A stretch of 64,000 nt of DNA from an uncultured Planctomycetia bacterium (GTDB lineage: Bacteria; Omnitrophota; Gorgyraeia; B26-G9). The notes under the pieces are model-generated. The model was not told the origin of the DNA. It searched no databases and was given only the letters and a program-made list of their open reading frames with translations. The number at the start of each line of letters is the position of its first letter. Position 1 is the stretch's first letter. Below, piece after piece: positions 43,275 to 60,497 of this stretch. Position numbers and translations under genes: made by a program. The DNA is taken from positions 3,964 to 67,963 of the forward strand of contig CAYTGV010000011.1 in assembly GCA_964437495.1 (NCBI GenBank), in the 5' to 3' direction.

Positions 43275-43499
43275 CTTTTGTCTCCTGGTTATCAGTCCAT
43301 GAATATAAGTAAATGATTAACCCCTATTGTATCATAAGACTGGATAATTTCAAGGAATAGAGAAAGTGGAGAGTTTGGGCAGGAAAAAGACACAAGACAC
43401 AGGTCACAAGTCACAAGTTTCAATTTGACCAACAATCTATTCTCTCCCCTTTTGGAATTTTTAGCTAAATTTCTTTGGTTTAGGTTTGAGTGTAGTTAT

Positions 43500-43830
43500 G
43501 GGGCGATGCCTGCCCCCGATGAAACGTCCCCCAGCCTTCATTTCCTTTTGTCGTCTAAAGGAAACGAAGCAAAGGCCCCGACTAAAAGCATGCGGGATAA
43601 ATTCAACCATGCAACTTACCTCAAAAAAAATCTGTAAGTTACGGTTTCATTTTAAAACTCGCCCCCAAAGAAACCGCGATGATTTTCTAATGGTTTACTC
43701 ACTGCGACTTCATCCCGCAAAAGGCGGGATTCGCCGCCAATTCGGCAGTCCTGCCTCATGGCGTTCCGCCGTCCTGGCTGCATCTTCGTTCCTAAACCAA
43801 AGAAAAGTCTATCGCTCATTTCAAAGGGGG
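43500..43830 (-). ncRNA. Copy A of a repeated ~230-330 nt structured-RNA-like element (unknown class). It is inverted relative to copies B and C and flanked by GTCACAAG-type direct repeats
   Basis: The reverse complement aligns with copies B and C. The shared 3' block is gcuggggga-cg-N-aucgggggcaggcaucgcccc, and the hairpin cuucguuucc/ggaaaugaag matches B. ORFs 43425..43637 and 43486..43836 overlap it and are judged spurious. Confidence 0.5.
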
Positions 43831-43956
43831 ATTTGAAAAACCGAAAAAAGTCACCAAGTCACAAGGTCACATGTCACAACTTAAAAATAGAACCATCCCT
43901 TTTTTTTCTTTTTTTAAAAATAAAAAATAATAAAGAAGCTCATTGATATAATATTA

Positions 43957-44052
43957 ACTAAAAACTAGTCGCTGTCCCTAGTTTCAAGTTCGAGATCACC
44001 TACTGGGGTGAACTTCTTCGCGCGCTCCCACCAGTTAGGTGGAATGAGTTGT
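43957..44052 (-). repeat. attC-like site (distal-most; R' end degenerate)
   Basis: acctactggggtgaacttcttcgcgcgctcccaccagttaggt is an imperfect palindrome homologous to the site at 48644..48718. It has ...gagttGTTATAAg at the ORF-proximal end. Confidence 0.55.
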
Positions 44053-44990
44053 TATAAGTTTAAATTTTCTATTTGCTCAATAGGCACGCCGTTTATTTTC
44101 CAAACAGGCTCTAATGCGTCAATTAAACCACAGTTAAAGTTTATAGAGCCGTTTTTTTCAAAATGCAAATTTATGCAGTCAGTTCCTTTATCCGTTCTTG
44201 AATAGGTTGCTTTTGAACCGTTTGAAAAATGAACACTGAAACCGTATAATCCTTTTTCCTCATTATTTAATAATTCTAGTATCTCATATTGAGGCCATTT
44301 ATGAAATTTTTTAGCTTTGCCACAAAAATTAAGGTATTCTTTATGCCACGATATTAATGCTCCATAAAAATTAAAGCAATTAGATATTAGTACGCTTATT
44401 TCTTCAAGTGGTATTTGTTGTGCAGGGCCTCCTTCAGTCCATCTATAATACTCAGAGGAAAATATATAATCTGAATGGAAAAAAGAATTTCTGACCTTGT
44501 TATTAAAAAAAGAATCAAAATATTCTATCAACAAAGTTTCTTTTGTTTTTGTTGCAAGTTCTTTTATATAATCTATTTTTCGCTTAGCACTTGGAGGAAT
44601 ATAGCCAAGTATTTGTTTTTTATTAGATCGTGATAAATGACCAAAGGGTCTAATATGATAATGTTCGCCAGCAATAATTCTTAATATATTAGTGAGTAAT
44701 TCGTGAGGAGCTGTCATTTCAATTGCTTGACAATATATTAATAAACCGATCCTCCAATGACCGTTTTTCGAAGGAGCATCTTTCGCTTTTTTCAAAAGCC
44801 AATTGTAATCTTCAAATGATTTTTGCGATTCTTCGAAAGAATCCCAGTCAGCGTCTTGGCACCCACCAACTCTCAAAAGAGAACATATTGTGTCAAAAGC
44901 ATTTTTTTCAAAAGCTTTGCGTGCTAACGAACAAAAATATTCGAAAAATTTTTCTTTTTCTATGAATTTCAATTCTTTTAAATCATTCAT
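44052..44990 (-). CDS. Cassette ORF, hypothetical protein (312 aa)
   Basis: Long ORF with attC-like sites on both sides. No recognisable motif. Confidence 0.6.
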   Translation of the reverse strand: MNDLKELKFIEKEKFFEYFCSLARKAFEKNAFDTICSLLRVGGCQDADWDSFEESQKSFEDYNWLLKKAKDAPSKNGHWRIGLLIYCQAIEMTAPHELLTNILRIIAGEHYHIRPFGHLSRSNKKQILGYIPPSAKRKIDYIKELATKTKETLLIEYFDSFFNNKVRNSFFHSDYIFSSEYYRWTEGGPAQQIPLEEISVLISNCFNFYGALISWHKEYLNFCGKAKKFHKWPQYEILELLNNEEKGLYGFSVHFSNGSKATYSRTDKGTDCINLHFEKNGSINFNCGLIDALEPVWKINGVPIEQIENLNL

Positions 44991-44998
44991 TTTTTTAC

Positions 44999-45124
44999 TT
45001 ATAACGTTTGAGCTCAGGCAACTTAGCTAATAGCCAATAGTCGATGGCTAATAGTTATCTTGCTTCATGTTTTTTACTATTGACCATCAGCTATGAGCCA
45101 TAGGCCATTCTGTTTGCTTGAAGC
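44999..45124 (-). repeat. attC-like site, family 1 (...GTTTGAGCTCAGGCAACTTAGCTRATAGCCAATAGTCGATGGCTAATAG...GACCATYAGCTAT...)
   Basis: TTATAAC at one end and GTTATAC at the other. The internal inverted repeat is ctaatagccaatagt / actattgaccatcag. Further copies lie at 51892..52003, 52290..52390, 53085..53265, 54868..55002, 55705..55870 and 56440..56590, with a partial copy at 50085..50250. Confidence 0.6.
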
Positions 45125-45130
45125 GAATTG

Positions 45131-45586
45131 TTATACTTTCTTATTATAATATAATCTAAATTTCTCAATAACTAAAATATATATTTGAGAGGGTTTCATC
45201 CCCTTGGTAATTGCAGAATCATAATCTTTGGGTGTTTTTATGTCCATAATTTTACCATCATTAAATTTTTCATGCCATTTTGATTTTTCACTTACTATTA
45301 TAGATTTATTTGAGTCTTCATACTGATCTGATGTGATATCAATAATAACACTATCCAGAACAATCCATTCATGCGAAGAACCATTATACATAGCGCCACA
45401 AAATCTTTTTGGCTTTAATCCGAACTCATTTTTTAGGCAATTTCCTAAAAATAATGTAGCCCAGCTACAACAACCACTAGGAAAATGCGGAAGAAAGCCA
45501 GGAGCATTATCTAGATTTATATTTTCAATAGACTTTCTGAATAATTGTGCTATTTTTAATAATTCTTTTTTATTAATTTTTTTCAT
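45131..45586 (-). CDS. Cassette ORF, hypothetical protein (151 aa)
   Basis: ORF with GTTATAC, then ctgaataa, then ATG upstream. Confidence 0.55.
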   Translation of the reverse strand: MKKINKKELLKIAQLFRKSIENINLDNAPGFLPHFPSGCCSWATLFLGNCLKNEFGLKPKRFCGAMYNGSSHEWIVLDSVIIDITSDQYEDSNKSIIVSEKSKWHEKFNDGKIMDIKTPKDYDSAITKGMKPSQIYILVIEKFRLYYNKKV

Positions 45587-45589
45587 TTA

Positions 45590-45678
45590 TTCAGAGTATA
45601 ACATCGACATCACCCGCCGGTAGACGCGACGCAAAGCGGCACGGGTAACGGTCCGGGGAATGAAGTCATTATATGTTT
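45590..45678 (-). repeat. attC-like site, short GC-rich family
   Basis: gtataacatcgacatcacccgccggtagacgcgacgcaaagcggcacgggtaacggtccgggg is an imperfect palindrome with a TATAAC end. Confidence 0.45.
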
Positions 45679-46689
45679 TTATCCCAACTTTAGTATTTTT
45701 ATATTTGAAAGTTTAGCTGGTCCACATTCATTAAAAAATCCAAATCTTAAATCTCTTTCAAATTCTGCAAAAAGATCTTTTCCATTACCACTATCATCTT
45801 GAATTATTAACTTTGCACCATCAACATAAAAATCAAATATTTTACTTGCAACATCAATCTTAACTTCAATAGCAAAAGAGTTTTTAACTTTTACTAATTT
45901 TTCGGGGACACAATTCAAAATTTTTGGCCAATAAAATTTTTGAGTGCAATGCAAAACACTATTTGGGGTTCCCGGAGCACCACGATTATCAAGTCGTAAC
46001 ATTTTAAAGTTGCCATCATCGACATAGTTAAAAACAAAATTAACTAAAGAATCTTTAGGTAACGATAAATCAAAAGCTAAATGCAAAAAAGTGCTAATCT
46101 TGTTTTTGAATATTAAAAAAGAATGAACTCTCGTTCTATCAATATTAAGATTCAGAACAAGATTAGAATCATAGTCTGGATTTCCAGCTAATTTATTTAA
46201 TATAAATTTCTCAATAATTATATTCTTCGATAGTGCGCTAAGTGTAGCATTAAGCAATCCCAGAGCCATCTGAGCATGCCCAAGATCAATGGGCCACCCC
46301 TTTTTTGCCTGTTTTTGAGGATGAATAAAATTTCTATAATCTTTAAATAGATTATAAATCAGCTTAAATTCATCTATTTCGGGAAGCAAGTCAACATCCT
46401 TTAAAAGAATATATAATTCGCTAATTGTAAGACTGTTAAATTTCTTTAATTTTTGATTAACTCCTTCTTTTGGGTATTTAGGAGAATTTTTTAATTCAGT
46501 TTTATAAATATCAGCTAAATATATAAAAATCCCTTCAATTGTGCTAATTGATAAAAAAATAGTACTATAATTAGCATTAACTATAAAAACTCTTTCTAAT
46601 TCTTGAAGTCTTCCACGCAATACAGCTCTTAACTCAACATCATTTATAAAATTAAGTTCTTGCTTTGTGATTTCAGTTTTGTATTCCAT
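45679..46689 (-). CDS. Cassette ORF, hypothetical protein (336 aa) with a DYRNFIHPQK motif (possible HEPN-like Rx4-6H)
   Basis: It shares the motif DYRNF[IV]HP.K with the unrelated cassette protein 46860..47684. Confidence 0.55.
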   Translation of the reverse strand: MEYKTEITKQELNFINDVELRAVLRGRLQELERVFIVNANYSTIFLSISTIEGIFIYLADIYKTELKNSPKYPKEGVNQKLKKFNSLTISELYILLKDVDLLPEIDEFKLIYNLFKDYRNFIHPQKQAKKGWPIDLGHAQMALGLLNATLSALSKNIIIEKFILNKLAGNPDYDSNLVLNLNIDRTRVHSFLIFKNKISTFLHLAFDLSLPKDSLVNFVFNYVDDGNFKMLRLDNRGAPGTPNSVLHCTQKFYWPKILNCVPEKLVKVKNSFAIEVKIDVASKIFDFYVDGAKLIIQDDSGNGKDLFAEFERDLRFGFFNECGPAKLSNIKILKLG

Positions 46690-46705
46690 TTAATTCCTTG
46701 TTTTC

Positions 46706-46882
46706 ATATAACGTTTGAACTCAGCTACTAAGTTGAGCTCCACCTGTCCCGCCGTTTTGTGGCGAGATTTGCGCTTGCCTCGCCAGGCTTTTTGGCGGGC
46801 GCACCCTCCAGCCTGAGAGATTTTTTAAATTCCTCAGGTTCTCGCACTCTTTAAGAGGGTTACCTGTAGTGATTTGTTAGTC
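46706..46882 (-). repeat. attC-like site, family 2 (GC-rich palindromic core ...cccgccgttttgtggcgag...ctcgccaggctttttggcgggcg...)
   Basis: CATATAAC-GTTTGAACTCAGC at one end and gatttGTTAGtc at the other. A related site lies at 48079..48191. Confidence 0.55.
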
Positions 46883-47684
46883 TACTTTTTTTTGTTAAAT
46901 TTTTTTCAAAATAATTACAAATACTATCCAGAGCCCCTTTAGCCATGAATGCTTCTGGTTCATCACATGAATGTTCTTCCTTTATTTCTTTTTTGGGATG
47001 AACGAAATTGCGATAGTCACGAAGAACCTGATCAATTGTATTCGCTTTTTTATCTGGCAGGATTGAAATATCAGTTGCAACTTCAATCAAATCTTTTAAC
47101 ACCCATTCATCTTTCAAAATATCTTTTACTTTTTTATGCTTATCTCTAGGTGCTTTTAAGCTAGCCATAGCTTTTTTTCTAATTTTACTTTTTGAACACA
47201 ATAAATCATATAATATTGCTTCTAAAATACTTCCTGCAATAATAACACAGCTTTTCCATGCTCTGCTAGGCAGTAAAATCACAGATAATTCCTTATAGTC
47301 TCTTTCAACTATATTGCGCAATTTTTTGTCCGAAATATAAGGAAAACAACGCTGTTCAGCAAAACTACCTTCACCCCCATAATTTTCAAGGATGTCGATT
47401 AATTTCTGTATTGTTGAATAAAGGTCTAAGCCAGGGTAAAGGAGAGGAAGAGTAAGAATAGAGTCTGATGTTTTTTTAGTATATCTTCTTATAACCACTC
47501 TTATACTTACAAACTCATATTGCCATTTGGGAAGAAAATCTCTAGGATCAAGGCGATTGATTTCTTCAGTAAGAGCTGTAAGTAATTCATGTACGTTTGC
47601 AGTTGTTTCATCATTCCTTTTTTTTTGCAAAGTTAAAGATTTCCTCTGTATCTCTGTACATAGTTTTTTTAAATAGCCAACCAT
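46860..47684 (-). CDS. Cassette ORF, hypothetical protein (274 aa) with a RDYRNFVHPKK motif (possible HEPN-like)
   Basis: The motif is shared with 45679..46689. The start is preceded by GTTAGAC. Confidence 0.55.
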   Translation of the reverse strand: MVGYLKKLCTEIQRKSLTLQKKRNDETTANVHELLTALTEEINRLDPRDFLPKWQYEFVSIRVVIRRYTKKTSDSILTLPLLYPGLDLYSTIQKLIDILENYGGEGSFAEQRCFPYISDKKLRNIVERDYKELSVILLPSRAWKSCVIIAGSILEAILYDLLCSKSKIRKKAMASLKAPRDKHKKVKDILKDEWVLKDLIEVATDISILPDKKANTIDQVLRDYRNFVHPKKEIKEEHSCDEPEAFMAKGALDSICNYFEKNLTKKSRLTNHYR

Positions 47685-47701
47685 ATTAATATTATTCCTT
47701 T

Positions 47702-47893
47702 GTCTAACAGGTTAATATACGAACTTCGCATTTTAAATACAGCGTAGAGCGTCTAATTTATCCCGCCGTTCTTTAGCGGGAGCGCTTAGCGAATTCAAAC
47801 TACCCCCTCATCCCTAAACCCTATTCCCTGCGTTTCTATCCCCTTTTCGCGCACATGCACCTACCGCGCACGCACCTACGAGGTGAATTTTAA
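47702..47893 (-). repeat. attC-like site, family X (long; contains atacagcgtatagcgtctaatttatcccgccgttctttggcgggagcgcttagcgaat)
   Basis: Three copies (47702..47893, 49374..49560, 58740..58985) share more than 85% identity over about 120 nt, including the hairpin cccgcc-gttcttt-ggcggg. The R'-like ends GTTAGAC/GTTAGAT abut the downstream ORF starts. Confidence 0.55.
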
Positions 47894-48058
47894 TTATTTA
47901 TCTTTATCTACTGTATTTATATCGCAAGGAACTACAGCTCCACATTTAGGACATTTAGTAGGGATGCCCTTAATCTGAATATGCAAACCTTCTTCATGTT
48001 GAATAGGGGATTCAAATCTATTATTGCATTCGGGACAAGACAAGTATCTCTTAGACAT
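47894..48058 (-). CDS. Cassette ORF, 54-aa zinc-ribbon protein (absent from the ORF track; below the length cutoff)
   Basis: The minus strand reads ggaggaacta ATG and encodes MSKRYLSCPECNNRFESPIQHEEGLHIQIKGIPTKCPKCGAVVPCDINTVDKDK*. It has two CPxC pairs and a strong RBS, and sits exactly between two attC-like sites. Confidence 0.6.
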   Translation of the reverse strand: MSKRYLSCPECNNRFESPIQHEEGLHIQIKGIPTKCPKCGAVVPCDINTVDKDK

Positions 48059-48195
48059 TAGTTCCTCCTTTATTGCTGTATAACATTTGAGCTCAGCTAC
48101 TGGCTTGAACTACTTTTGCGCACACCCTCCAGCCTAAGAAATCTCAGGTTCTCGCCCTCTTTCGAGGGTTAGCTGAAGTAATTTGTTATCTGTTT

Positions 48196-48630
48196 TTATT
48201 CTTTTTCTTCTAGAACTTTTTGCACAACACCTTCAGATATTACTATTTCTTCTCCTGTAACACTGATAAATTGAAAGGTTTTAGTATTAATCAATATAGT
48301 TTCTATTGCCAATGGGAGTGTCCTGGTAAGACATATAACCTTATCTTTTGTCCCAGTTGGAAGGCCAGAGTAAATATATGAGATTGTATATTTATCATTA
48401 ATTTTGTCTAATTTGGTTTGGTCGGAAGGATTTGTTTGTTCGATTATGCGTGCTAGTTGAAATGTTTCATTTATTTTTATTCTATGCACGAATAAGTTTG
48501 GATTTTTCTCTGGAATTATTTCCCCATTTTTATATATACCAACATTTTGCTCAGTTAAAACTAATGTTTCTGTAGCTAAGGCGTTAGAGCATATAAAAAG
48601 AAAACCAAGTAATAAAATTAGTTTTTTCAT
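48196..48630 (-). CDS. Cassette ORF, secreted or lipoprotein (144 aa)
   Basis: The signal peptide is MKKLILLLGFLFICSNALA. GTTATATG, then aaaggaaa, then ATG lie upstream. Confidence 0.6.
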   Translation of the reverse strand: MKKLILLLGFLFICSNALATETLVLTEQNVGIYKNGEIIPEKNPNLFVHRIKINETFQLARIIEQTNPSDQTKLDKINDKYTISYIYSGLPTGTKDKVICLTRTLPLAIETILINTKTFQFISVTGEEIVISEGVVQKVLEEKE

Positions 48631-48643
48631 TTATTTTCCTTTC

Positions 48644-48718
48644 ATATAACATTCAAACTCACCTACTGGGGTGAACTTCTTTGCACGCTCCCACCAGTTA
48701 GGTGAAAGAGTTGTTAGA
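48644..48718 (-). repeat. attC-like site (short palindrome acctactggggtgaac...cccaccagttaggt)
   Basis: CATATAAC and GTTAGAG ends. It is homologous to the site at 43957..44052. Confidence 0.55.
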
Positions 48719-48720
48719 GA

Positions 48721-49374
48721 TTATTTGTCGAAATTTATTTTAATATTTTTATAACCCAGCTTTTCGAATATATTACACAAACTTGAAAATGCTTGTCTAT
48801 CATTATGTATTAAATGAGGTCCTACATCAAGAAAAGCTCTACTAATCATATAATAAAAATCGCTGCCAAACAATAAGAGCTCTTTCATAACTGCATGACT
48901 AGGCAAGGAATTTCGTTTAGCTTGGTATTCTGCATGAGCAATTACTTTGTTTCGGACATAATCGTATTGTGAAAAACAAATCTTATGTTTTGAATAAAAG
49001 TTTTTGCAGATAACTTCTAGTGTTTCAATGTAATTATCTTTCTCACTATTGTTCTCATATTTTTCTATAAATTCATTAACGTATTCATAATATTTTGGTT
49101 GAACATCATTGCTTTTTATAAAGTTTAAAATTGCGGGAATGGAGTTCAGTTGATAATCTTTTTCTGGTTCAAAAATTTTACAAATATTAATTACGCAAGA
49201 CTCTAAAAGAACCATCTGAATGTGAACAAAAAATCTTTTTCCTATTCCAATAGTGTTTATATTGTCTGCGTTTAAGCCGAGTAGCTTTTCTGAATCAATG
49301 CTTTGCTTAAGTGAAAAAAGTATTTTTGCTAATTCTTTATTTCTCTCATCTAATTTTTTCATCATTTTTTTCAT
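48721..49374 (-). CDS. Cassette ORF, hypothetical protein (217 aa) with a possible HEPN-type Rx4-6H motif (RNKVIAH)
   Basis: ORF with GTTAGATGaaaaaa then ATG upstream. The motif assignment is tentative. Confidence 0.5.
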   Translation of the reverse strand: MKKMMKKLDERNKELAKILFSLKQSIDSEKLLGLNADNINTIGIGKRFFVHIQMVLLESCVINICKIFEPEKDYQLNSIPAILNFIKSNDVQPKYYEYVNEFIEKYENNSEKDNYIETLEVICKNFYSKHKICFSQYDYVRNKVIAHAEYQAKRNSLPSHAVMKELLLFGSDFYYMISRAFLDVGPHLIHNDRQAFSSLCNIFEKLGYKNIKINFDK

Positions 49375-49582
49375 CTAACATTTAATATACGCAATTCGCA
49401 TTTTAAATACAGCGTATAGCGTTTAATTTATCCCGCCGTTCTTTGGCGGGAGCGTTTAGCGAATAACAAATCCAAAACTACCCCCTCATCCCTAACCGCT
49501 GCTTTTAACTAGTAATTCATAATTCACGTGTGCCCTTTAGGGTTTAACTCATAACTATGTTTCCCTATTCTCTGCTTTTCTG

Positions 49583-49814
49583 TCTCCCCTTTGAAACCAA
49601 GCATTATGTTTTTCTTTAAGTTAGGCGTTTGGGCGAAGACAGGATGTCGAAGCGCCGTAAGGCAGGATTGCCTTTTCGGCGGTTTACCCATGAGACTAAC
49701 TTATTAGAAAAACAATGCTGTTTCTCAGGGGCGGTTTTCCTTTGCTTCGTTTCCTTTAGACGCCAAAAGGAAATGAAGGCTGGGGGACGCTTTATCTGGG
49801 GCAGGCATCGCCCC
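49583..49814 (+). ncRNA. Copy B of the repeated structured-RNA-like element, embedded inside a composite attC region
   Basis: It aligns with copy C. The helix gcgccg...cggcg (B) versus gugccg...cggca (C) shows a compensatory change. The hairpin cuucguuucc/ggaaaugaag (with a G.U pair on this strand) versus cauacuuucu/agaaaguaug in C also shows compensatory changes. The conserved 3' end is gcugggggacgc..aucgggggcaggcaucgcccc. The overlapping 72-aa ORF 49629..49847 is judged spurious. Confidence 0.5.
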
Positions 49815-50256
49815 TTAATCCCACATAAATCCCCTGCCGCTTTCTAAAAATAAAAAAAGACAATCCCCTCAATCTCTTGAGAAAATCGCCTTAAAATTAA
49901 ACTTTTTGTATGCACTCATTAATTCTACTCCTTTGTAGCCTTATGAGTTTGTCAAAACCATATTAATTTAGGTTACATCTTTCTCTTACACAAGTCAATG
50001 AAAAATCAAACAGGGAAAACTGCCCCATTTTAATGAACTTTTATGTTTTTTCTCTCCACTTTTAATATATTCTATATAGTCGATAACCAATAGTCTATGG
50101 CTAATAGTTATTTTATCTTTAATCTGCTTCTTCACTCATCACTAATAATTCATAATTTGTAACTATTTGGACCATTAGCTATGAGCTATAAGCCATTTCA
50201 TTTGCCTGCCTGTCCCGCCGCTTTTTGGCGGGGAAGCGATTTGTTAGGGGTTTTAT

Positions 50257-50622
50257 CTATAGATCATTACGTAAATTTGTTAGTTTTCTTTCTAAAACTG
50301 CAAGTTCTCGTAATGTATTCTCTTTAAGTTCAGTGTTTTTATTATCAACCTCACTAAAATCTATGTTTTTATAAGTATTTCTCAGGAAAATGAATTTTTC
50401 CAGCCAAACATTTAAATCCTGCCGTTCGGTTTCTTCACCCTCATTTATAAATATTTCCATACCATCAGTCAATTCTTTCCAGTAAACCTTTACTATTGAA
50501 AACACAGCATCTGGACTTTCGTCTTCATTAATATCAAGGCGAGTTGTCCATAACATAACTTCATTTAATTCAATTATGTCTAACAAAGAATCAACTACTT
50601 CCTTAATAATATCTCTACTCAT
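50257..50622 (-). CDS. Cassette ORF, hypothetical protein (121 aa)
   Basis: RBS AAGGAG. A TTGACA-N16-TAAAAT promoter-like sequence lies about 60 nt upstream on the minus strand. Confidence 0.55.
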   Translation of the reverse strand: MSRDIIKEVVDSLLDIIELNEVMLWTTRLDINEDESPDAVFSIVKVYWKELTDGMEIFINEGEETERQDLNVWLEKFIFLRNTYKNIDFSEVDNKNTELKENTLRELAVLERKLTNLRNDL

Positions 50623-51310: not shown

Positions 51311-51328
51311 TTTATTCTCCTTTTTTAG

Positions 51329-51397
51329 TTATAACTTTCAAGCTCACCTGCCGAAAACGCGCAACGTTTTTCGGTCAGGTGGAGCGTTTTGTTAGAT
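51329..51397 (-). repeat. attC-like site (near-perfect palindrome cacctgccgaaaacg-cgcaa-cgtttttcggtcaggtg)
   Basis: GTTATAAC and GTTAGAT ends flank a 15-bp stem. Confidence 0.6.
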
Positions 51398-53054: not shown

Positions 53055-53270
53055 AATAATAATAGTTTCCTTTCTAAAACATTAAAATAAACCATGACAT
53101 CTCAGGCAATTTAGCTGATGGCTAATGGTCGATAGTCAATTGCTAACAGATATTGCAATTTTGTTTTTTGTTTATTGTTTTTCACTATTAGCCATTAGCT
53201 ATGCCTGTCCGCTGTGCTTTGTGGCGGAAGCTATTGACCATTGTAAAATGTCACTCTCCCCTTTTATCTC

Positions 53271-54749
53271 TTAGAATTTTCTGTAGAAAAATATGCATAT
53301 CTTCTTTAGCAGGGCATTATTCATCTTATTCATTATCCAAGTTTCCGCGATACGCTTAGATAAAAACCCCATAGTCGGAAATGAATGTGCCAGAAAAAGA
53401 ATATTAAGCAAGTTGATCTTTTTTTGAATTATAAGTGCCCATTCATTTATCATTTCACCTGAGCCCTCACCGATAATACTCACCCCATATACTTTTCCCA
53501 AAGGGCTGGCAAAAACCTTTATAAAACCAACCGCGATATTCTCCGCGATCGCAGCACCGTAATCCTCGTATTTAACAATAAGCGTTTCATACTTTATTCC
53601 TTTAGCTTTAAGTTCTTTTTCCATCATACCCACATAAGAAACCTGCGGTTCAGTAAAAGCTGTCCAGGGTATCACATAATTTCTGTATTGAAACAGCGAA
53701 AAAGGGCTAACAGCATTCATTATCGAAAACATTCCCTGATGCATTGCCACATGTGAAAGCATTATACCGCCATTACAATCTCCCACTGCATAAATATTCT
53801 TATTGCTTGTCCTGTATTTTGCATCAACCTTGATACCGTTCTTATCATATCCAACCCCGGCATTTTCAAGTTTTAAAGCATGAAGATCAATATTTCTCCC
53901 CGAACAGAGCAATAATTTTTCAGATTTTATACAAAGCCCGTCATCAGTGCGCAAAACAATCTGCCCCTCCTGATTGTTTACGCTGATAATCTTTTTTAAG
54001 TTGTAAACATCAATTCCTTCCTTTTTAAAGACTTCTTCAAGTACATTCCCAGCTTGTTTATCGCCAAAAGGTATAAGATGTTCATCCATTTGCACAATAC
54101 TACACTTAGTCCCAAGCCGAGTAAACGCCTGAGCCATCTCACAGCCCATAACACTGCCGCCGATTATAGTCATACTTTTAGGAGCTTCCTTTAAATCAAA
54201 AATATTTAGATTGGTTAGAAAATCTATATCAGAAATACCTTTTATTGGCGGAATTTGAGGCTCTGTGCCAACAGCAATAAAGATTCTCTGAGCAGTTAAA
54301 GTATCATCTCCCACTTTAACAGTATGCGCGTCTATAAAACTGGCATCTCCTTTTTCTAATATAAGCTTAACCTTATCAAACATTTTTATTGTCTTTTTAT
54401 TACATATGAAATCAAGATATTCAGCTATTTCTTTAGAAGGAAATTTTACTCGCAAATCCGGCTCTTTAATCACTCCTATTTGGCTGAGTTTTGAAAGCGA
54501 ATGCCTTAGCTTAGCGATTCTGAGCAGTGCTTTGCTAGGTATGCATCCTACATTCATACACTCTCCGCCAATTTTATTTTTTTCAATAGCGCATACTTTT
54601 AATCCCATTTCCGCGCCCATAATAGAAACAGCCATCCCGGCAGGTCCTAACCCAATACAGATTAGATCAAAATCATATTTCATGTATTCTCCTTGATCTT
54701 CCTTTTTCCAAACAACACTCTTGCATTCATTAAACCCGCAATTACTCAA
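53271..54749 (-). CDS. Cassette ORF, pyridine nucleotide-disulfide oxidoreductase (dihydrolipoamide dehydrogenase/mercuric reductase family)
   Basis: A redox-active disulfide GGECMNVGCIPSK, FAD- and NAD-binding GxGxxG motifs, and an extended hydrophobic C-terminal tail. Confidence 0.75.
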   Translation of the reverse strand: MSNCGFNECKSVVWKKEDQGEYMKYDFDLICIGLGPAGMAVSIMGAEMGLKVCAIEKNKIGGECMNVGCIPSKALLRIAKLRHSLSKLSQIGVIKEPDLRVKFPSKEIAEYLDFICNKKTIKMFDKVKLILEKGDASFIDAHTVKVGDDTLTAQRIFIAVGTEPQIPPIKGISDIDFLTNLNIFDLKEAPKSMTIIGGSVMGCEMAQAFTRLGTKCSIVQMDEHLIPFGDKQAGNVLEEVFKKEGIDVYNLKKIISVNNQEGQIVLRTDDGLCIKSEKLLLCSGRNIDLHALKLENAGVGYDKNGIKVDAKYRTSNKNIYAVGDCNGGIMLSHVAMHQGMFSIMNAVSPFSLFQYRNYVIPWTAFTEPQVSYVGMMEKELKAKGIKYETLIVKYEDYGAAIAENIAVGFIKVFASPLGKVYGVSIIGEGSGEMINEWALIIQKKINLLNILFLAHSFPTMGFLSKRIAETWIMNKMNNALLKKICIFFYRKF

Positions 54750-55019
54750 ACCAATATATACATGTCTCTTGCAGATCTTTTGTCAATGCAATACTATTTT
54801 TGTCTCAGTCAGGTGTAAATTCTGCTTTTTCAGTAATGTTTGACTTTTTTTATCCCCTTTTTCACTATATGACGTTTGAGCTGCCAGTTTAGCTAACTGC
54901 CAATAGTCGATGGCTAATAGTGGTTTGCTCTATATTTTTTTACTATTTACCATTAGCTATAAACCATGAGCCATTATATTTACCTAAAGTAATTTGTTAG
55001 ATGTTTATATATTTTAAAA

Positions 55020-55364
55020 TTAATCTTCTACAAAAATTGTTTTCTTTATCGGATTAGGTGCTTTTACTACCAAAAACTTCAATGGATTTTGACTTTCATT
55101 GTACCAACAATGCACAATATCTTTCGGACTATCTATTAAAGTATTTTTTGAAACTTTTTGTTTTTCTTCTCCGATCTCAACAATTCCTTCTCCTTCCAGT
55201 ACATAAAAGACAACATCAACAGGTGTTATGTGACGCTTTAATGATTGACCTGGAATTAGCGTGATTACTGTAATCATGACTGCTTCTTTATTGTATAGAT
55301 TTCTAACGTCCACGTTGTGCGCATTATTCATTATTTGAGTTTCATCTAATTTTTTTATTATCAT
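55020..55364 (-). CDS. Cassette ORF, cupin-domain protein
   Basis: A 114-aa protein with a cupin-like G(x)5HxH-type segment (LIPGQSLKRHITPVDV...). Confidence 0.45.
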   Translation of the reverse strand: MIIKKLDETQIMNNAHNVDVRNLYNKEAVMITVITLIPGQSLKRHITPVDVVFYVLEGEGIVEIGEEKQKVSKNTLIDSPKDIVHCWYNESQNPLKFLVVKAPNPIKKTIFVED

Positions 55365-55422
55365 TTTATCTCCATTGTTATTATTAATAATTTTAATTCT
55401 TTTATTACCGATTAAAAAGCAC

Positions 55423-55680
55423 TCAACCCACCATCTTCATAATCCCCACATAAGCACCAAAACCAATACCCCAGGAAATTGCTACCCAAAAGATTAGTTT
55501 TGTTTCGGCTAGAATATCTTTCCAATATTCCCCTCTACACATTGAAAAAATATTTGGGATGAGCCAAAATTTTATACAACGCAAAAATTCTTCTTTGTCT
55601 CCGAAAAAGGGTTTCCATAGAAGATAGGCTAGGCCGACTCCTACTATAGTTCCCACACTCTTACTAATAATAGCTATCAT
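55423..55680 (-). CDS. Cassette ORF, small membrane protein (85 aa)
   Basis: Two hydrophobic helices, in the same cassette as the cupin gene. Confidence 0.4.
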   Translation of the reverse strand: MIAIISKSVGTIVGVGLAYLLWKPFFGDKEEFLRCIKFWLIPNIFSMCRGEYWKDILAETKLIFWVAISWGIGFGAYVGIMKMVG

Positions 55681-56000
55681 ATACTCTCCGTTTCATGGAT
55701 TCCTATAACATTTGAGCTCAGGCAACTTAGCTGATAGCCAATAGTCGATGGCTGATAGTTATGTTGCTCTATGTTTTTTACTATTCACCATTAGCTATGC
55801 CTATCCGCTGTGATTTGTAGCGGAAGCCATTAGCTATACGCTATTGACCATTTTAAAATGTCGCTGTCCCCTTTAATACACGTTTGATTTTATATATAAC
55901 GTTTAAGCTCAGGCAAAAATCAGCGCATAGAAAATTCAGACATAGTAATCGCTGTCTCTTTTCCCCTCACTAAATCAAGAACAGTTCAGTCTAATCTCTT

Positions 56001-56414
56001 TTATTGTTTTTTCTCTCTTAAATATAAAACTAACACACAAACTCCATGGATTACAAAAGCCGGTGCAAATAAAAGGCCTATAAAGTATCCATTAGTGCTT
56101 ATTCCGGAAGCAAATGCCCAGATGTATATTGCTGATACACCTAAACTAGCAATCGCATCTACCAATTTATAATTATCTTTCTTATAGTATAAAGGCAAAG
56201 CGCCTAATGCTGCATAAATAGCTCCGTTAAAAATCAGAGTTATCGTTTCCTTCTGGGATATGCCAAGTTTAAAAATATTTTGTATCCCAAATAATAAGCC
56301 CAAAAAACCTAAAAGAAGTAAAGGAAAATGGTAGTACATAGCAATATTGGGATTGAATTTCTCAAGAACATGTCCGAGAGTTCTATTTTCATTTGTAGTT
56401 TTGTTTTCTTCCAT
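56001..56414 (-). CDS. Cassette ORF, 4-TM membrane protein (137 aa)
   Basis: Hydrophobic profile only. Confidence 0.5.
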   Translation of the reverse strand: MEENKTTNENRTLGHVLEKFNPNIAMYYHFPLLLLGFLGLLFGIQNIFKLGISQKETITLIFNGAIYAALGALPLYYKKDNYKLVDAIASLGVSAIYIWAFASGISTNGYFIGLLFAPAFVIHGVCVLVLYLREKKQ

Positions 56415-56607
56415 GTCTTACTCTCCATTTTCTTTATATAACGTTTGAGCTCAGGCAAATTAGCTGATAGCCAATAGTCGATGGCTAATAGTTATTTTAT
56501 TTTTAAACTGCTTCTTCACTCATAACTAATAATTCATGTGTGCCCTTTAGGGTATAACTCATAACTATGTTTACCTATCCCCTGCTTTTCTCTCACCCTT
56601 TTAAAAC

Positions 56608-56637
56608 ATAATATGCCATTTCCATGAATTTTGTCAA
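56608..56637 (-). promoter_or_regulatory. Near-consensus sigma-70 promoter (TTGACA-N18-TATTAT) reading into the downstream cassettes
   Basis: The minus strand reads TTGACAaaattcatggaaatggcaTATTAT. An almost identical copy lies at 60182..60211. Confidence 0.55.
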
Positions 56638-56728
56638 TTTTATATTATTTTTGTCTTTTTATCCCCTTTTGGAATTTTTAGCTATATTTCATTGTTTTAG
56701 GGGAATGGATGGAGTAGAGGCGAAGGAA

Positions 56729-58561
56729 TTAAATGCTTTGGTCAATTTTTGTTTTGTTTTGAACCTGAAAAATTTTTATCCCAGCGGCAAGAAATGAAAT
56801 TGAGGCGAGATTTGCTAGGTTTTTGCTGTTTAGCTCTTCTTGCACCCATTCTGTTTGATTAACAGAGGATCCTAAAAAAGTATGTAAAAGTCTAGCGGAA
56901 ATAGAACGTTCTTTGGCTTGGGTTGTAAAATTAGGAGATTTAGCAAGAGAAATGACTTTTATTTTTTCTTGGATAGATAAGTCATTATAGAAATTATTTA
57001 TAACCTGTAGTAATTGTTCAAATCTCTGATTGCTGGTTGTGTATGCAGGCAATTCGGCTTTTCTTGATAGAAACGGCTCTTTAGTTCCTAAGAAATCTTG
57101 ATCTACATCTAAAATTATATCTTGATCTTCATCTGCAAGTTTTTTAAGTTTTATTGCATCCTTGGGAGATACTAAATGAACCTCTACTTTTCTTACATTA
57201 GTGAATTTTGCATTTTCGCCTTCCCATTCTTCTTTGATATACCCTTTTTCATAACTTCCAAAAACGTTGTTTCCATCTAAAGATACAGAAACAAAAGTAT
57301 CTTTGCCTCTAAACATTGCTTTTCCAATAAGAATTTCATATTTTTTGTTATATTCTGGAACGTAGTCTACGTTGCTGGATTCATTTGCTTCTTCAGGGAC
57401 AACCCAAATTATTTTATCGATTATCCCAGCATAAACAGCTGGAATAATGAAACCATCGATGTCAGATTTTTGGGTAATGCGTCCTAACATTTCATTATTA
57501 AAATTTCCGTTCAAAAAAGCATCTAAAAAATCATTATTTAATCTGTAAGAAGCTAAATCTCGATGGGCATCAAAGTGAAATAAGGTTCTTTTTTTTGTTT
57601 TAGGACCTAACTCCTTCATCCAAGCATATAATGCCCAATAATGAGCATAGCCTATATAAACCGGAATATCGGTAGAAGTAATTGCTCTGGGTTTAGAGAT
57701 ATTGTTAAAAAGATCTAGCTCATAAAAAAAATCAGCATTCTCAAACTGATCTTGGATTACTGAATATGTGTTTTGATCAAAAATCAATGGGTATGTGCCT
57801 GCATCAAACCAAGTTACATATTTTTCTTTATTATCTTTATTGGCATATAATTCAAAAATTTTGTTTGCACGGCTTAATCTAGAAAACATGATGTCTAAAT
57901 ATGATATTAAATCTGTTTCACCTTTAATTGTTAAAGATTCTTTTAATTTCATAAAATGCATTTGCTGTTCATTATAAATTTTTGATGCCATTAACCAATC
58001 ACTACTATTCAAAGAATTGAGGAATAATTTCCAAATGGGATCATTTGTATCAAGGGTGATATCCGCATTTTTTAATAAAGAGTTTAAATGATTACCTACT
58101 GTCATTTTAGAATATCGAAGCTTATCTATAAATTTTTTTTCTTCTTGTTTTTTGAGAATTAATTCAGGATTAGCTTTTTTTACATATAATCCTGCATTGG
58201 CAATGCCTGGAGGAACTAAGGCATAAGTTATGGCGGCTCCAGTTAATATTCCCAAACCTTTGATAAATTTTCTTCTTCCAATAGAGATGTCTGAGTTTGC
58301 ATTTTTTGAATCATCAGAAATAATAAATCTTTTGATAAATGATTTTATATATTCAGCAAATTTTTTATTTTGGGGAGTTTTAGCTATCTCTATTGTATCT
58401 TTAAAGTATTCTTTTAAGTTTATATTGTTTAATTGTAAATGCGGGGCAAGGTGATTATTAAGTTCTATACAATAAGCCAAATCACCCAGAAGAAACATAT
58501 TAATTAAGAATAAAATGCAAAGTTGTTTCATTAGTTTATTTATTCTAATCTTAAGTTTCAT
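56729..58561 (-). CDS. Cassette ORF, large hypothetical protein (610 aa) with an internal twin-arginine-like segment (RRKFIKGLGILTGAA)
   Basis: Long ORF. The true start may be internal. No catalytic motif recognised. Confidence 0.55.
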   Translation of the reverse strand: MKLKIRINKLMKQLCILFLINMFLLGDLAYCIELNNHLAPHLQLNNINLKEYFKDTIEIAKTPQNKKFAEYIKSFIKRFIISDDSKNANSDISIGRRKFIKGLGILTGAAITYALVPPGIANAGLYVKKANPELILKKQEEKKFIDKLRYSKMTVGNHLNSLLKNADITLDTNDPIWKLFLNSLNSSDWLMASKIYNEQQMHFMKLKESLTIKGETDLISYLDIMFSRLSRANKIFELYANKDNKEKYVTWFDAGTYPLIFDQNTYSVIQDQFENADFFYELDLFNNISKPRAITSTDIPVYIGYAHYWALYAWMKELGPKTKKRTLFHFDAHRDLASYRLNNDFLDAFLNGNFNNEMLGRITQKSDIDGFIIPAVYAGIIDKIIWVVPEEANESSNVDYVPEYNKKYEILIGKAMFRGKDTFVSVSLDGNNVFGSYEKGYIKEEWEGENAKFTNVRKVEVHLVSPKDAIKLKKLADEDQDIILDVDQDFLGTKEPFLSRKAELPAYTTSNQRFEQLLQVINNFYNDLSIQEKIKVISLAKSPNFTTQAKERSISARLLHTFLGSSVNQTEWVQEELNSKNLANLASISFLAAGIKIFQVQNKTKIDQSI

Positions 58562-58992
58562 AAGTAATCAGTTTTCCTATTAACTAAATTATAAGTATCA
58601 ATTAAATTATACCTTATAACGTAGATATTATACAAATTAGTTAGCGTAATTTATTGATTTAATTGTTAGCTAAAACTATAGCTGGAAAGGCAATAAAAAT
58701 TAAGATTAGTAAATATTTATTTATGATTTATTTTCTTAAAATAACAATTAATATACATAGTATGTGTTAAATACAGCGTATAGCGTCTAATTTATCCCGC
58801 CGTTCTTTGGCGGGAGCGCTTAGCAAATCCAAAACTATCCCCTCATCCCTAACCGCTGCTTTTAACTCGTAATTCATAATTCACGTGTGCCCTTTAGGGT
58901 ATTTGGGCCATTAGCTATGCCTGTCCGCTGTGCTTTGTAGCGAAAGCCATTATGTTTGCCTGTAGCGAATTGTTAAAAATGTTTTAAAATAG

Positions 58993-60039
58993 TTAATTTT
59001 TATTTTCTATCAAATTTTTTAATTCTTTAGCAAGTAAAGACTGTCCCAATTTATTTAAATGACAATAATCAAGAAAAAATTTCTGTGTGTTCGCAGGGTT
59101 GTTATTAACTTGTTTTAGGAAATAATCATCCAGATTTAAAATATTTAAGTTATCTAACCCTATTAAGTTTTGTTTAATCATCGATTGAAGTTGCGGAGTA
59201 ATGAGAAATCTTCTTTTTATCCAATTTTTTTCGATTATATCTCTAGTGATATTAATATCTTTCGGCATTTCTATATTCAATTGGTCGTATTTTTTCATAT
59301 GGTTCCAATTGTGTGTATAGTTTATTGGGGGAATAACATAAATAAAATTTGTTTGAGGGTTATCATTTATTATACTTCTTAGTTCTCTTAGTCTCATTTT
59401 ATAAAATGAATTTTGCAATGAAATATAGAATTTGTTTAAATAAGGCCAAGAATCTTTCCCTCCACCTTTTATTATCGCAAAGGGAAATCGATGAGGATGC
59501 TTTGATTGGCATATTTTGTCGTATAAAGTATTTATTGTATTATGAGTTGTGTGTGAAAAAAAACTGATTTGAGAAAAGATTTTGGGTAAAAAGTATCGAA
59601 TGAGAAAAACTGCACAATTAGAATGTTCACTACGGTTTAGTAGTTCTAAATATTCATTATTACCAGAAAAAATAACGCAATTTTCAATATCATTTGTTCT
59701 TAAGGAGTTATATAAATAGTAATTTATTTCTGAGAGAGGAATCCCAATGTTTGAATCATTAATGATGGTACTTTTGGGGAAATAACTTGCTAGCAATTCA
59801 GAATATCTATCGTTAATATTTTCTAACCCCGCTCCTTTTGAAGCTGAGCCTCCAAGACAAAGAATATCAATCTTCTTACCAAAATCATGCACCTCAGGCA
59901 ATTTAAAAGATACTTCTCTTAGTACATAAAATCTTTTCCCCCGCCCTATAGTAATCCGAGTTATTAACTCAACAGCGCTTAGAATAATAATGAGGGTAAA
60001 AAATACAACATATAGTTTGTGGAGAATATTTTTTTTCAA
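58993..60039 (-). CDS. Cassette ORF, membrane-anchored hypothetical protein (348 aa), possibly SGNH/GDSL-like
   Basis: An N-terminal TM helix. ILCLGGSASKG weakly resembles GDS(L) block I. Confidence 0.45.
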   Translation of the reverse strand: MKKNILHKLYVVFFTLIIILSAVELITRITIGRGKRFYVLREVSFKLPEVHDFGKKIDILCLGGSASKGAGLENINDRYSELLASYFPKSTIINDSNIGIPLSEINYYLYNSLRTNDIENCVIFSGNNEYLELLNRSEHSNCAVFLIRYFLPKIFSQISFFSHTTHNTINTLYDKICQSKHPHRFPFAIIKGGGKDSWPYLNKFYISLQNSFYKMRLRELRSIINDNPQTNFIYVIPPINYTHNWNHMKKYDQLNIEMPKDINITRDIIEKNWIKRRFLITPQLQSMIKQNLIGLDNLNILNLDDYFLKQVNNNPANTQKFFLDYCHLNKLGQSLLAKELKNLIENKN

Positions 60040-60181
60040 GATTTTAATTTCTTATTTTTAACAATTAATATACATAGTATGTGTTTGCTTGAAGGTATTC
60101 TTAATCTTGCCCTGAATATGGTTAAAATTGCCTACTTTAACTTTAATATTTATCTATTTTATCAATAATATCATATTATCC

Positions 60182-60211
60182 ATAATATGTCATTTCTATG
60201 AATTTTGTCAA
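60182..60211 (-). promoter_or_regulatory. Near-consensus sigma-70 promoter (TTGACA-N18-TATTAT) at the proximal end of the cassette array, Pc-like
   Basis: The minus strand reads TTGACAaaattcatagaaatgacaTATTAT, reading towards the first cassette (58993..60039). Confidence 0.55.
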
Positions 60212-60233
60212 TTTTATATTATTTTTGTCTTTT

Positions 60234-60497
60234 TCTCCCCTTTTGGAATTTTAGCTATATTTCTTTTTTTTAGGGGGATGGACGAAAACAGGATGTTGGA
60301 GTGCCGTAAGGCAAGACTGCCTTTTCGGCAATGGATTTTCGAGACTTCAGACTCGGAAATTCATCCAGACACCTAAACCATTAGAAATATGCAAAAATTC
60401 CTTAGGGGTGGGTTTTCTTTGCATACTTTCTTTTAGCCACCGAAAGAAAGTATGGCTGGGGGACGCAACATCGGGGGCAGGCATCGCCCCCCCCCCC
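60234..60497 (+). ncRNA. Copy C of the repeated structured-RNA-like element, at the proximal boundary of the array; it ends in an 11-nt C tract
   Basis: See copy B. It has compensatory hairpins relative to A and B and a conserved 3' block. ORFs 60128..60376 and 60347..60556 overlap it and are judged spurious. Confidence 0.5.

Follow-up and report, generated by a model that had tools for sequence, protein, structure and literature searches.

A multicopy structured element, probably an RNA, at the edges of integron-type cassette islands in one family of uncultured Omnitrophota

The window analysed here is a 64,000-nucleotide stretch from a 2.1 Mb Candidatus Omnitrophota MAG, and contains an integron-type, CALIN-like cassette array together with three copies (A, B and C) and several fragments of a repeated element (Table 1). 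The ORFs of the array are separated by imperfect-palindrome attC repeats with ATAAC...GTTAT cores. The original prediction that this is a genuine attC cassette array holds, and the same attC modules are found beside IntI genes in relatives. No IntI gene is present in this assembly, and no integrase gene lies near the array. IntI sequences scoring >400 bits were detected in 11 relatives, and IntI is present in 9 of the 12 genomes that carry the element versus 3 of the 6 that do not, a weak co-occurrence. As had been predicted, copies A and C lie at the two ends of the array in opposite orientation. The 3' end of copy A faces conserved PilZ and pyruvate kinase genes and its 5' end faces the cassettes, while copy C forms the upstream end of the array, with its 3' end toward TPR genes outside it.

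Table 1. Positions in the window of the cassette array, the element copies and fragments, and adjacent sites
Feature	Position	Strand	Description
Solo 5' arm of Stem I	43440..43492	+	~first 50 nt of element; truncated at GGTTTAGG
Copy A	43496..43837	-	full-length; optional ~80-nt module in loop after GGGGCGAGUUUU
Copy A 3' hairpin	43500-43516
GTGAC heptamer repeats (four)	43850..43877	-	directly upstream of copy A
Integron-type cassette array (CALIN-like)	43985..60040	-	~17 ORFs, all on -
Copy B	49578..49818	+	shortest canonical form
Copy B Domain I	49584-49733		Stem I and junction with P3 and P4/P4a
Copy B Domain II	49734-49788		P5 (GUUUUCC/GGGGGAC) and P6 hairpin
Copy B linker	49789-49797
Copy B P7 hairpin	49798-49814
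Element start, 15 nt	56590-56607
Duplicate of copy C 5' flank and ~50-nt element start	56607..56709	+
5'-arm fragment	56657-56709		~first 50 nt of element
Weaker promoter-like site, TTATCA-16-CATAAT	60159-60186	+	diverges from - strand site; reads toward copy C
Promoter-like site, TTGACA-18-TATTAT (11/12 matches)	60182..60211	-	copy C 5' flank; reads into array
Copy C	60228..60497	+	full-length; longer variable hairpin after P4

The three copies originally described are real and alignable, their coordinates hold, and the conserved 3' block (GGCUGGGGGACG-N4-AUC-N-GGGGCAGGCAUCGCCCC) is found in all of them. Two further 5'-arm fragments had been overlooked, and the 17 kb of array contain only A, B and C plus these two. 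One, a solo 5' arm, abuts the 3' end of copy A; the other belongs to a duplicate of the copy C 5' flank (56607-56678 is 96% identical to 60181-60252), and this duplicate and copy C form a direct repeat around two genes. The GTGAC heptamer array also occurs upstream of two other A-type copies.

The element is not the three-copy local feature that was first envisaged, but a genome-wide family of ~24 copies in the host genome (19 full-length and ~5 partial), with 19 full-length and 3 partial copies over 12 contigs recovered by nhmmer. Pairwise identity among the copies is 59-92%; they are strictly intergenic and have sharp ends, and internally deleted and truncated derivatives exist. Of 17 further genomes in the taxonomic family, 11 carry the element, and none of 43 genomes that represent other families within the class does; it is also present in Omnitrophota MAGs and metagenome contigs. 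Many element positions are conserved between species, and orthologous sites can be occupied by different subfamilies. The overall picture is one of ~20 diverged copies per genome in a single family of uncultured Omnitrophota, mostly at cassette-island edges.

The element core is ~240 nt long and reaches ~380 nt with optional inserts. Its three-domain fold is supported by an alignment of 51 distinct sequences, drawn from at least 8 genomes and metagenomes. The first domain is built on Stem I, a helix of ~35 bp closed by a 5' CCCC pairing with the first G-run (AGGGG), whose arms are the first ~45 nt of the element and a segment ~130 nt downstream, so that the 5' arm is terminal and its partner internal; this stem closes a junction carrying P3, P4/P4a and a variable hairpin. 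The second domain combines the U-G-rich P5 helix with the highly conserved P6 hairpin, and the third is the terminal GC hairpin P7, with a 5-bp GC stem. A conserved secondary structure with compensatory changes had been claimed from the window alone, and the alignments support it: P4 (CGCCG/CGGCG, with GUGCCG/CGGCA in copy C) and P6 (CUUCGUUUCC/GGAAAUGAAG versus CAUACUUUCU/AGAAAGUAUG) were rightly recognised as real, covarying helices, whereas the ~35 bp Stem I was missed.

RNAalifold analysis of 17 copies gives 54 pairs, with double-sided changes in 17 of them. Across the 51 sequences, compensatory changes occur at 39 of 68 pairs versus 26 +/- 2 in shuffles (maximum 33), and 91.4% of cells are paired, compared with 81.4 +/- 0.3% in 300 shuffles and only 42-57% in slid-partner controls. 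Compensatory changes extend to the small internal hairpins, and unpaired motifs and stretches are conserved across copies. For copy B, the folding energy is -98.6 kcal/mol (z = -6.1).

No conserved ORF runs across the copies. Indels and modules are not multiples of three, and the longest stretch free of stop codons in each copy has a median length of 70 aa (minimum 39 aa). Overlapping ORFs are alike over 25 residues only, across the conserved 3' block, and the GAMPAPD peptide is a reverse-strand reading of the conserved 3' hairpin. A protein-coding gene was therefore rejected, and the lack of a conserved frame, together with the compensatory fold, upholds the earlier view that the element is non-coding. 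The failure to match it by eye to a known RNA was likewise borne out: an Rfam 15 scan of the whole window at gathering threshold returned two tRNAs only, and a scan of 43000-61000 at E up to 10 returned four chance matches, none on the element. The families covered include hammerhead, twister, pistol, hatchet, HDV-like, group II, HEARO, IS605-orfB, 6S, tmRNA and RNase P.

Taken from sequence comparison, the element is probably a lineage-specific structured non-coding module, and probably an RNA. Folding of the sense strand is 12 kcal/mol more favourable than that of the antisense strand, P5 contains three near-invariant U-G pairs, and in 32 of 51 sequences the P6 pair 205/230 is a G-U. If P1, P5 and one P6 pair are set aside, there are 109 G-U cells and 80 A-C cells, a modest excess that leaves the choice of strand short of compelling; as RNA, copies B and C would most probably be read from the + strand and copy A from the - strand.

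The placement of the copies follows a consistent geometry. Copy A has an orthologous copy in another genome (G004:C118), where the 5' flank of copy C is also conserved, and the A/C bracket is kept in a congeneric genome with a single cassette between the pair. Synteny with three congeners breaks off at 43354, near copy A. At copy A and at six other copies (C21, C15, C2_79k, C6_50k, C3 and C6_75k), conserved DNA lies on the 3' side and variable DNA on the 5' side. Head-to-head pairs number seven and tail-to-tail pairs one or two, and the islands bracketed by head-to-head pairs range from 25 nt to 16 kb. Orientation relative to the genes of the island itself is inconsistent, with copy A co-directional and copies B and C not. 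This geometry is the basis for a possible boundary role.

The reading favoured here, tentatively and with slightly less than even confidence, is that of an undescribed, lineage-specific interspersed non-coding module, most probably an RNA, that moves along with cassettes and would mark where islands end. The element has no transposase of its own and is carried in ORF-less attC-associated DNA and at cassette-island ends. Copying and exchange may be performed by the machinery that moves cassettes, with IntI acting in trans, and by homologous exchange between copies, and each copy would then be maintained by selection on its fold. The 5' end is always directed toward the variable island, so that a transcript leaving the island would read the element in sense and end in a compact structure. 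In cis, the element may thus be an outward-facing boundary module that forms, stabilises or insulates an RNA 3' end, and some copies may also be transcribed from an upstream promoter of their own. Promoter-like boxes are conserved upstream in one subfamily, copy C has a promoter-like pair (Table 1), and a promoter scan returned 7 sites versus 1.7 expected in shuffles. Points against this reading are that P7 is not followed by an intrinsic terminator, that co-occurrence with IntI is weak, and that the copies are not consistently oriented relative to the genes of their island.

Carriage with cassette DNA is suggested by one presence/absence polymorphism, which comes close to the non-coding cassette that was one of the initial suggestions: the element lies inside a ~775-nt ORF-less insert with attC-type repeats on either side, at a site that is empty in two congeners. 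A gene-plus-element module is also found at different loci in two species, and the attC-nested homologue described below is a further link to integrons. However, for 14 of the 19 full-length copies the flanks contain, within 500 nt, no attC-type k-mers beyond the 95th percentile of the background, so spread with cassettes can account for only a part of the family. Integron cassettes that are gene-less (ORF-less) but show promoter activity have been described (Blanco et al. 2024, PMC11014356; also PMC6557892), and the element resembles these in being non-coding DNA within arrays, in the ORF-less insert that holds one copy, and in its adjoining promoter-like sites, of which a strong one reads into the array. 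A shared multi-helix fold, genome-wide interspersion and array bracketing, in contrast, are not reported for such cassettes.

Of the other readings, the one that survives best, although itself doubtful, is that the element acts as folded single-stranded DNA, with the integron integrase or XerCD using it as a very large, branched recombination structure, either as an oversized central part of an attC or as an attI-like docking site for cassette insertion. Covariation is the same for single-stranded DNA and RNA, so the fold alone cannot separate the two, and motifs of both kinds are indistinguishable by comparative analysis (Weinberg et al. 2017, PMC5737381). Like the element, attC sites (and the DUF1874 motif, a possible unusual attC; PMC5737381) conserve structure over sequence, reside in cassette arrays and have one strand that folds better. 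In another genus, a complete integron has an element homologue in its last attC, placed exactly between the two complementary arms, L'' and L'. Arrays begin at the 5' side of the element, and breakpoints and a 7-bp-flanked insertion recur at the 5'-arm GG(T/C)TTA(G/A), which resembles the GTTRRRY core and in copies B and C18 provides a perfect GTTAGGC/GTTAGAC. The orientation of the copies is also biased relative to the replication strand, in favour of this reading. However, an attC is a single imperfect hairpin of about 57-141 nt whose two ends carry R''(RYYYAAC)-L''...L'-R'(GTTRRRY) arms, whereas the element, at 240-380 nt, exceeds known attC sites fourfold in length, has three separate domains and conserved unpaired stretches, and lacks such arms of its own; the GTTAGGC...CTAAC boxes of copy B are in reversed order relative to an attC hairpin. 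The flanks of the 19 copies in the host genome are not complementary, and copy B, initially placed inside a composite attC, does not lie between complementary attC arms in the window (z = -0.9). The element was rejected as an attC site on grounds of size, domains, box order and flanks, and as a one-per-cassette attC because attC repeats distinct from it already lie between the ORFs and the array contains only A, B, C and two fragments of it. The 14 copies without attC-type repeats in their immediate flanks also speak against the single-stranded DNA reading, and no similarity to the attI region beside IntI was found.

It is fairly improbable that the element is a non-autonomous transposable element (a MITE, PATE or REPIN-like sequence) mobilised in trans by a Y1 HUH (IS200/RAYT) or IS110/IS1111 DEDD enzyme, with the fold serving as a recognition structure or guide RNA. 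Multiple copies, sharp ends, deleted and truncated derivatives, different subfamilies at orthologous sites and the replication-strand bias would all be consistent with transposition. All 18 genomes of the family have Y1_Tnp genes and 11 of them have IS110 genes; the element lies <=1.5 kb from a Y1 gene in five relatives, and in one genome (G013) a Y1 gene is flanked by two element pieces. However, the six Y1 genes of the host genome have no element sequence within 2 kb. Neither terminal inverted repeats nor a target-site duplication is found at the element ends; a MITE or non-autonomous IS was rejected because the Stem I partner is internal, no duplication occurs, and none of the six IS110 loci of relatives or the six Y1 genes of the host genome that were searched has the element. 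An insertion of the element alone, matched by a precise empty site, was not found, the sole clean polymorphism being the ~775-nt composite, and the many positions conserved between species also weigh against mobility of this kind.

Searches for partner proteins were similarly negative: none linked the element to TnpB, IS110, a reverse transcriptase or a Y1 transposase. The IS110 domain PF01548 is absent from the host genome, and six IS110 loci of relatives, searched using a 3'-half model with filters off, lack the element (best 11 bits), leading to the rejection of an IS110/IS1111 bridge RNA or seekRNA. A TnpB/IscB omega-RNA was rejected because TnpB (PF07282) gave nothing over cut-off in 18 genomes (with one sub-threshold match) and neighbouring ORFs lack such domains. 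A group II intron or retroelement RNA was rejected because reverse transcriptase (PF00078) is absent from the host genome and no intron model matches. Omega-RNAs and HEARO are comparable to the element in size and complexity, in a sharp 3' scaffold end and in their many copies in some genomes, but neither Rfam HEARO nor IS605-orfB matches it, and it has no adjacent nuclease ORF. Known interspersed structured repeats in bacteria include REP/BIME, REPIN-RAYT, Neisseria Correia elements, ERIC and RUP; like the element, these are multicopy and strictly intergenic; they form hairpins when transcribed, persist at orthologous sites, and can stabilise or end upstream mRNAs. The abundance of Y1 (RAYT-like) genes in the genome family of the element is a further likeness to these repeats. 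The element differs in being much larger and multi-domain, in lacking terminal inverted repeats and a target duplication, and in having compensatory changes in small internal hairpins and not only in two terminal arms; in the host genome, no Y1 gene is flanked by element copies. Group IIC-attC introns and IS1111-attC elements with their seekRNA share the attC location and a structured RNA (PMC3001079, PMC11187229). However, the host genome has no reverse transcriptase or group II domains, and the seekRNA of IS1111-attC is ~82 nt long and lies beside a DEDD transposase (PMC3001079, PMC11187229), whereas the IS110-family loci searched in relatives are elementless.

More improbable again is the possibility that the copies are genes for trans-acting small RNAs, which would be regulators or RNA antitoxins that keep cassette arrays stable, each with its own promoter, and that the edge position is incidental. 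A promoter-like region is conserved upstream in one subfamily. In addition, 12 of 16 copies located between co-directional genes are antisense to those genes, as expected for independent transcription units, and the conserved unpaired motifs would suit this reading, as would the gene-less Vibrio cassettes with promoters for which small RNAs have been proposed (PMC11014356). However, no intrinsic terminator follows P7, a run of >=4 U being present in only two or three of 19 copies, and a terminator scan at copy C gave no call; a Rho-independent terminator was rejected because the P7 GC hairpin generally lacks a directly following U tract. Moreover, a regulator would not usually have ~20 diverged paralogues in a 2.1 Mb genome, no variable seed region could be recognised, and the orientation rule and head-to-head pairs are left unexplained. 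A self-cleaving ribozyme of a new class riding in cassette arrays, the leading idea of the original prediction, is very improbable, as the complex conserved fold, conserved unpaired nucleotides, sharp boundaries and mobile-DNA residence are only generic points in its favour. No ribozyme family in Rfam matches, even with the E limit raised to 10, and neither a conserved position that might be cleaved nor a pseudoknotted core was found. Repeat boundaries would account for the sharp ends just as well, and there is no sign of cleavage.

Across Rfam and the mobile-element classes tested, the element matches no described RNA or mobile-element family. The usual picture of an integron comprises an integrase, attI, a promoter and cassettes each with an attC. 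A conserved, complex, multicopy fold at array edges lies outside this picture, particularly one that is oriented outward at both ends and whose bracket persists from species to species as the intervening cassettes change. As an RNA, the element would represent a large class of orphan structured RNA from a phylum about which little is known, with ~50 diverged variants available for structure work; as single-stranded DNA, it would surpass in complexity every known DNA fold associated with recombination. Either way, it can be used to locate and delimit hypervariable islands in the genomes of Omnitrophota, and it helps to explain the assembly breaks at such islands. It is rather unlikely, but conceivable, that integron-like systems have in this element a new functional component, a structured RNA or folded DNA strand that defines cassette-island ends. 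Such a component might recruit or block the integrase, or let arrays between head-to-head copies be exchanged or inverted, and if this is true, the CALINs of this Omnitrophota family would be organised units and not debris.

The three copies of the element named in the original prediction (A, B and C) are all present in the window and alignable end to end. A profile built from them detects 19 full-length and three partial copies on 12 contigs of G000, the Candidatus Omnitrophota MAG to which the window belongs as C11:3964-67963 (2.1 Mb in 83 contigs, 92% complete, 37.7% G+C), and BLAST adds two 5' fragments within the window beyond these profile matches. All copies are intergenic. Their ends are sharp, with a CCCC run at the 5' start and the hairpin GGGGC-N7-GCCCC at the 3' end, past which some subfamilies carry ~20 nt more of weakly conserved tail. 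Core sequences are 59-92% identical in pairwise comparison (median 69%); there are two optional loop modules of ~80 nt and ~45 nt, and both internally deleted and 5'-truncated derivatives exist. A minimal derivative (G000:C26:57-140 and 262-392), which adjoins a tRNA-like sequence as judged by eye, is without helices P2-P4, the sequence between two ATTTCTT repeats having been lost. At G000:C1:8640-8700 (minus strand) only a remnant of the 3' hairpin is found, and the same site in a related genome (G004, contig C5) holds a head-to-head pair around 1.6 kb, a pattern suggestive of decay that begins at the 5' side. On another contig of that genome (G004:C33; locus L105:2815-3005), one copy is interrupted in its 5' arm by a ~190-nt insert with 25-nt terminal inverted repeats, bordered by the 7-bp repeat GG(C/T)TTA(A/G); the insert may be either a small MITE or an attC-only cassette.

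Searches with a covariance model built on the 3' half (R1) detected the element in 11 of 17 further genomes of this family, spread over several genera at 1-17 copies each; 43 genomes representing other families of the class gave no hits. The consensus of this model was partly wrong, with the 5' partner of P1 cut off, and it served for detection only. In pattern scans, the named carriers were Candidatus Omnitrophota MAGs, accompanied by metagenome contigs; viral contigs gave no match, and phage carriage is thus not supported.

Features of the element and its surroundings in the window
Feature	Position	Strand	Remarks
Y1 ORF	6063-7055	minus	330 aa; N-terminal Y1 (IS200/RAYT-like) transposase domain
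5' element fragments	43440-43492 and 56657-56709		BLAST
Copy A	43496-43837	minus	aligns with B and C over whole length
GTGAC heptamer array	43850-43877	minus	inverted version near 43385-43420
Cassette array	43985-60040		~17 minus-strand ORFs; between them, imperfect-palindrome repeats with ATAAC...GTTAT cores
Long attC sites	45000-45144, 51893-52036, 54866-55022, 55704-55851, 56437-56532		stop-rich repeats of 7-nt period
D3 repeats	47712-47794, 49382-49464, 58746-58828		83 nt, two hairpins; directly upstream of three cassette ORFs
HEPN AbiU2-type cassette	48721-49374	minus	abortive-infection or defence gene; 200 nt from copy B, divergent from B
Copy B	49578-49818	plus	aligns with A and C over whole length
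Domain I (copy B)	49584-49733		~35-bp Stem I: first ~45 nt pairs with segment ~130 nt downstream
Domain II (copy B)	49734-49788		P5 (GUUUUCC with GGGGGAC, three U-G pairs) and 16-bp P6
P7 (copy B)	49798-49814		last part of element
Duplicate of C's 72-nt 5' flank	56607-56678		96% identical; 3.5 kb downstream, before further cassettes
Promoter-like site TTGACA-18-TATTAT	60182-60211	minus	near-consensus, strong; upstream of C, reads into array
Copy C	60228-60497	plus	aligns with A and B over whole length

A, B and C all contain the two covarying helices proposed earlier, together with the conserved 3' block. An RNAalifold model of 17 copies had 54 pairs, 17 of them with double-sided changes. Folding of the ungapped core in a larger alignment, with 52 copies drawn from eight or more genomes and metagenomes, gave a model of 68 pairs, for which pair counts and shuffle and slide controls were computed in Python. 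Paired cells reach 91.4%, versus 81.4 ± 0.3% (maximum 82.2%) when columns are shuffled 300 times, and drop to 42-57% when partners are slid by one to three columns; compensatory double changes occur at 39 pairs, versus 26 ± 2 in shuffles (maximum 33), and are seen repeatedly in all helices but P1, P5 and P7. The fold consists of Domain I, Domain II and the terminal hairpin P7. Stem I spans the 5' CCCC/AGGGG pairing through the UUUAGG/CCUAAA pairing, and closes a junction bearing P3, P4 (which encloses the hairpin P4a) and, optionally, a variable hairpin.

The element conserves no reading frame, and the peptide GAMPAPD is only what the conserved 3' hairpin encodes when read on the reverse strand, in agreement with the earlier exclusion of a protein-coding origin. 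No Rfam family matches the element, either at gathering scores or at E values up to 10. The nearest published analogues are gene-less cassettes with promoters (PMC11014356) and a DUF1874 possible-attC motif (PMC5737381), but both lack the architecture of the element and the bracket arrangement described below; literature searches combining Omnitrophota with integrons or non-coding RNA yielded no relevant work. The element is genuine, a structured and non-coding module under selection that falls outside every existing family.

The cassette array is genuine, as had been proposed: its repeat modules also adjoin genuine integron integrases in 11 relatives (>400 bits versus a cut-off of 265). There is no intI anywhere in the G000 assembly; IntI genes are present in congeners and in 11 of 17 other family genomes, with unusually long open frames of 430-456 aa. 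The long attC sites contain repeats such as TAGCTAA TAGCCAA TAGTCGA TGGCTAA, which are unusual for attC central regions. The D3 repeat has the motif AATTTATCCCGC in common with the optional 80-nt module of the element, and is found again near element copies on contigs C2, C6 and C18. Synteny with three congeners covers pyruvate kinase and PilZ and ends at 43354, just before A. At the orthologous locus in G004, an A-like copy is followed by one attC, one cassette ORF and the 5' flank of C, and then, where the contig ends, by the beginning of a C-like copy, with ~1 kb between the copies versus 16 kb in the window. The A/C bracket is therefore conserved, and the enclosed content is different.

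This geometry is recurrent, with the 3' end of the element against conserved DNA and the 5' end toward variable DNA or a contig break, as seen at copy A and at six copies named by contig or by contig and position (C21, C15, C2_79k, C6_50k, C3 and C6_75k); at the last of these, the 5' side is precisely where G004 contains 4.3 kb of additional DNA. Head-to-head pairs occur in seven places and enclose 25 nt to 16 kb, and tail-to-tail pairs occur once or twice. Three arrays of three or four GTGAC repeats are present in the genome (including G000:C2:71056 and C18:2158), two of them within 20 nt of A-type copies, and may be protein-binding arrays.

In G009, a relative with a better assembly, a complete small integron (intI and two cassettes) ends with an element between the complementary inner arms (L''/L') of the last attC, and a second array terminates in the same way. 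The suggestion that the element lies within an attC is not supported for G000, where 5' and 3' flanks show no signal of complementarity across all 19 copies. At C1:180685, a site that is empty in two congeners carries a ~775-nt ORF-less insert in G000, with the element in the middle and attC-type repeats on either side; attC-type k-mers are enriched near only ~5 of the 19 copies, and this, together with the non-complementary flanks, counts against a pure cassette model. A gene-plus-element module occupies different loci in G000 and G004, and different subfamilies can occupy orthologous sites. The folding energy of copy B is -98.6 kcal/mol (z = -6.1), and that of its complement is -86.4 kcal/mol. 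The stated strand is favored by G-U pairs in P1, P5 and one P6 position; elsewhere the excess is only modest (109 G-U versus 80 A-C cells). The main rival to an RNA-based reading, in which the element is a recombination structure made of folded DNA, is unlikely.

Mobilization in trans, as a transposable element, appears quite improbable. Among 26 neighboring ORFs, Pfam and NCBIfam searches detected no integrase, transposase or nuclease beside copies, and when the neighbors of each copy, from G000 as well as from relatives, were compared all against all by BLAST, only TPR proteins recurred. Genome-wide searches found no TnpB in G000 or the family, and neither IS110 transposase nor reverse transcriptase in G000, whose only two tyrosine recombinases are Xer-type, the element-adjacent one being XerD. 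IS110 genes are present in 11 of 18 family genomes, and no element was found at six IS110 loci searched in relatives. All 18 family genomes contain Y1 (IS200/RAYT-like) genes, as many as 17 in a single genome and with product lengths of ~150, 220-240, 310-335 and 390-400 aa; none of the six in G000 has an element within 2 kb, and those near some copies in relatives look like ordinary island cargo. In 30-kb windows around copies, G000 shows a very pronounced GC skew (0.12-0.20) and has 85-100% of its coding bases on the G-rich strand, so that replication direction can be read from single contigs. Of the 19 copies in G000, 12 lie on the C-rich strand, as do 32 of the 44 that could be scored in relatives; A-type copies are on the G-rich strand in five of five. 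A strict replication-strand orientation as in IS200/IS605 was rejected, the ratio being only ~70:30 and subfamily-dependent.

Members of one subfamily have promoter-like boxes in common, 26-40 nt before the CCCC run, and a weaker promoter-like site upstream of C reads toward it; the strong site there reads into the array, and there is no terminator after P7. A family of trans-acting small RNAs is very unlikely. A ribozyme, for which the Rfam scan returned no match on the element, is highly improbable.

The data establish the fold, the distribution and the geometry of the element. As the most likely reading, at somewhat short of an even chance, we tentatively infer that it is an RNA that travels with cassette DNA and is retained where an island meets its surroundings, and that transcripts leaving the island end in its structure.
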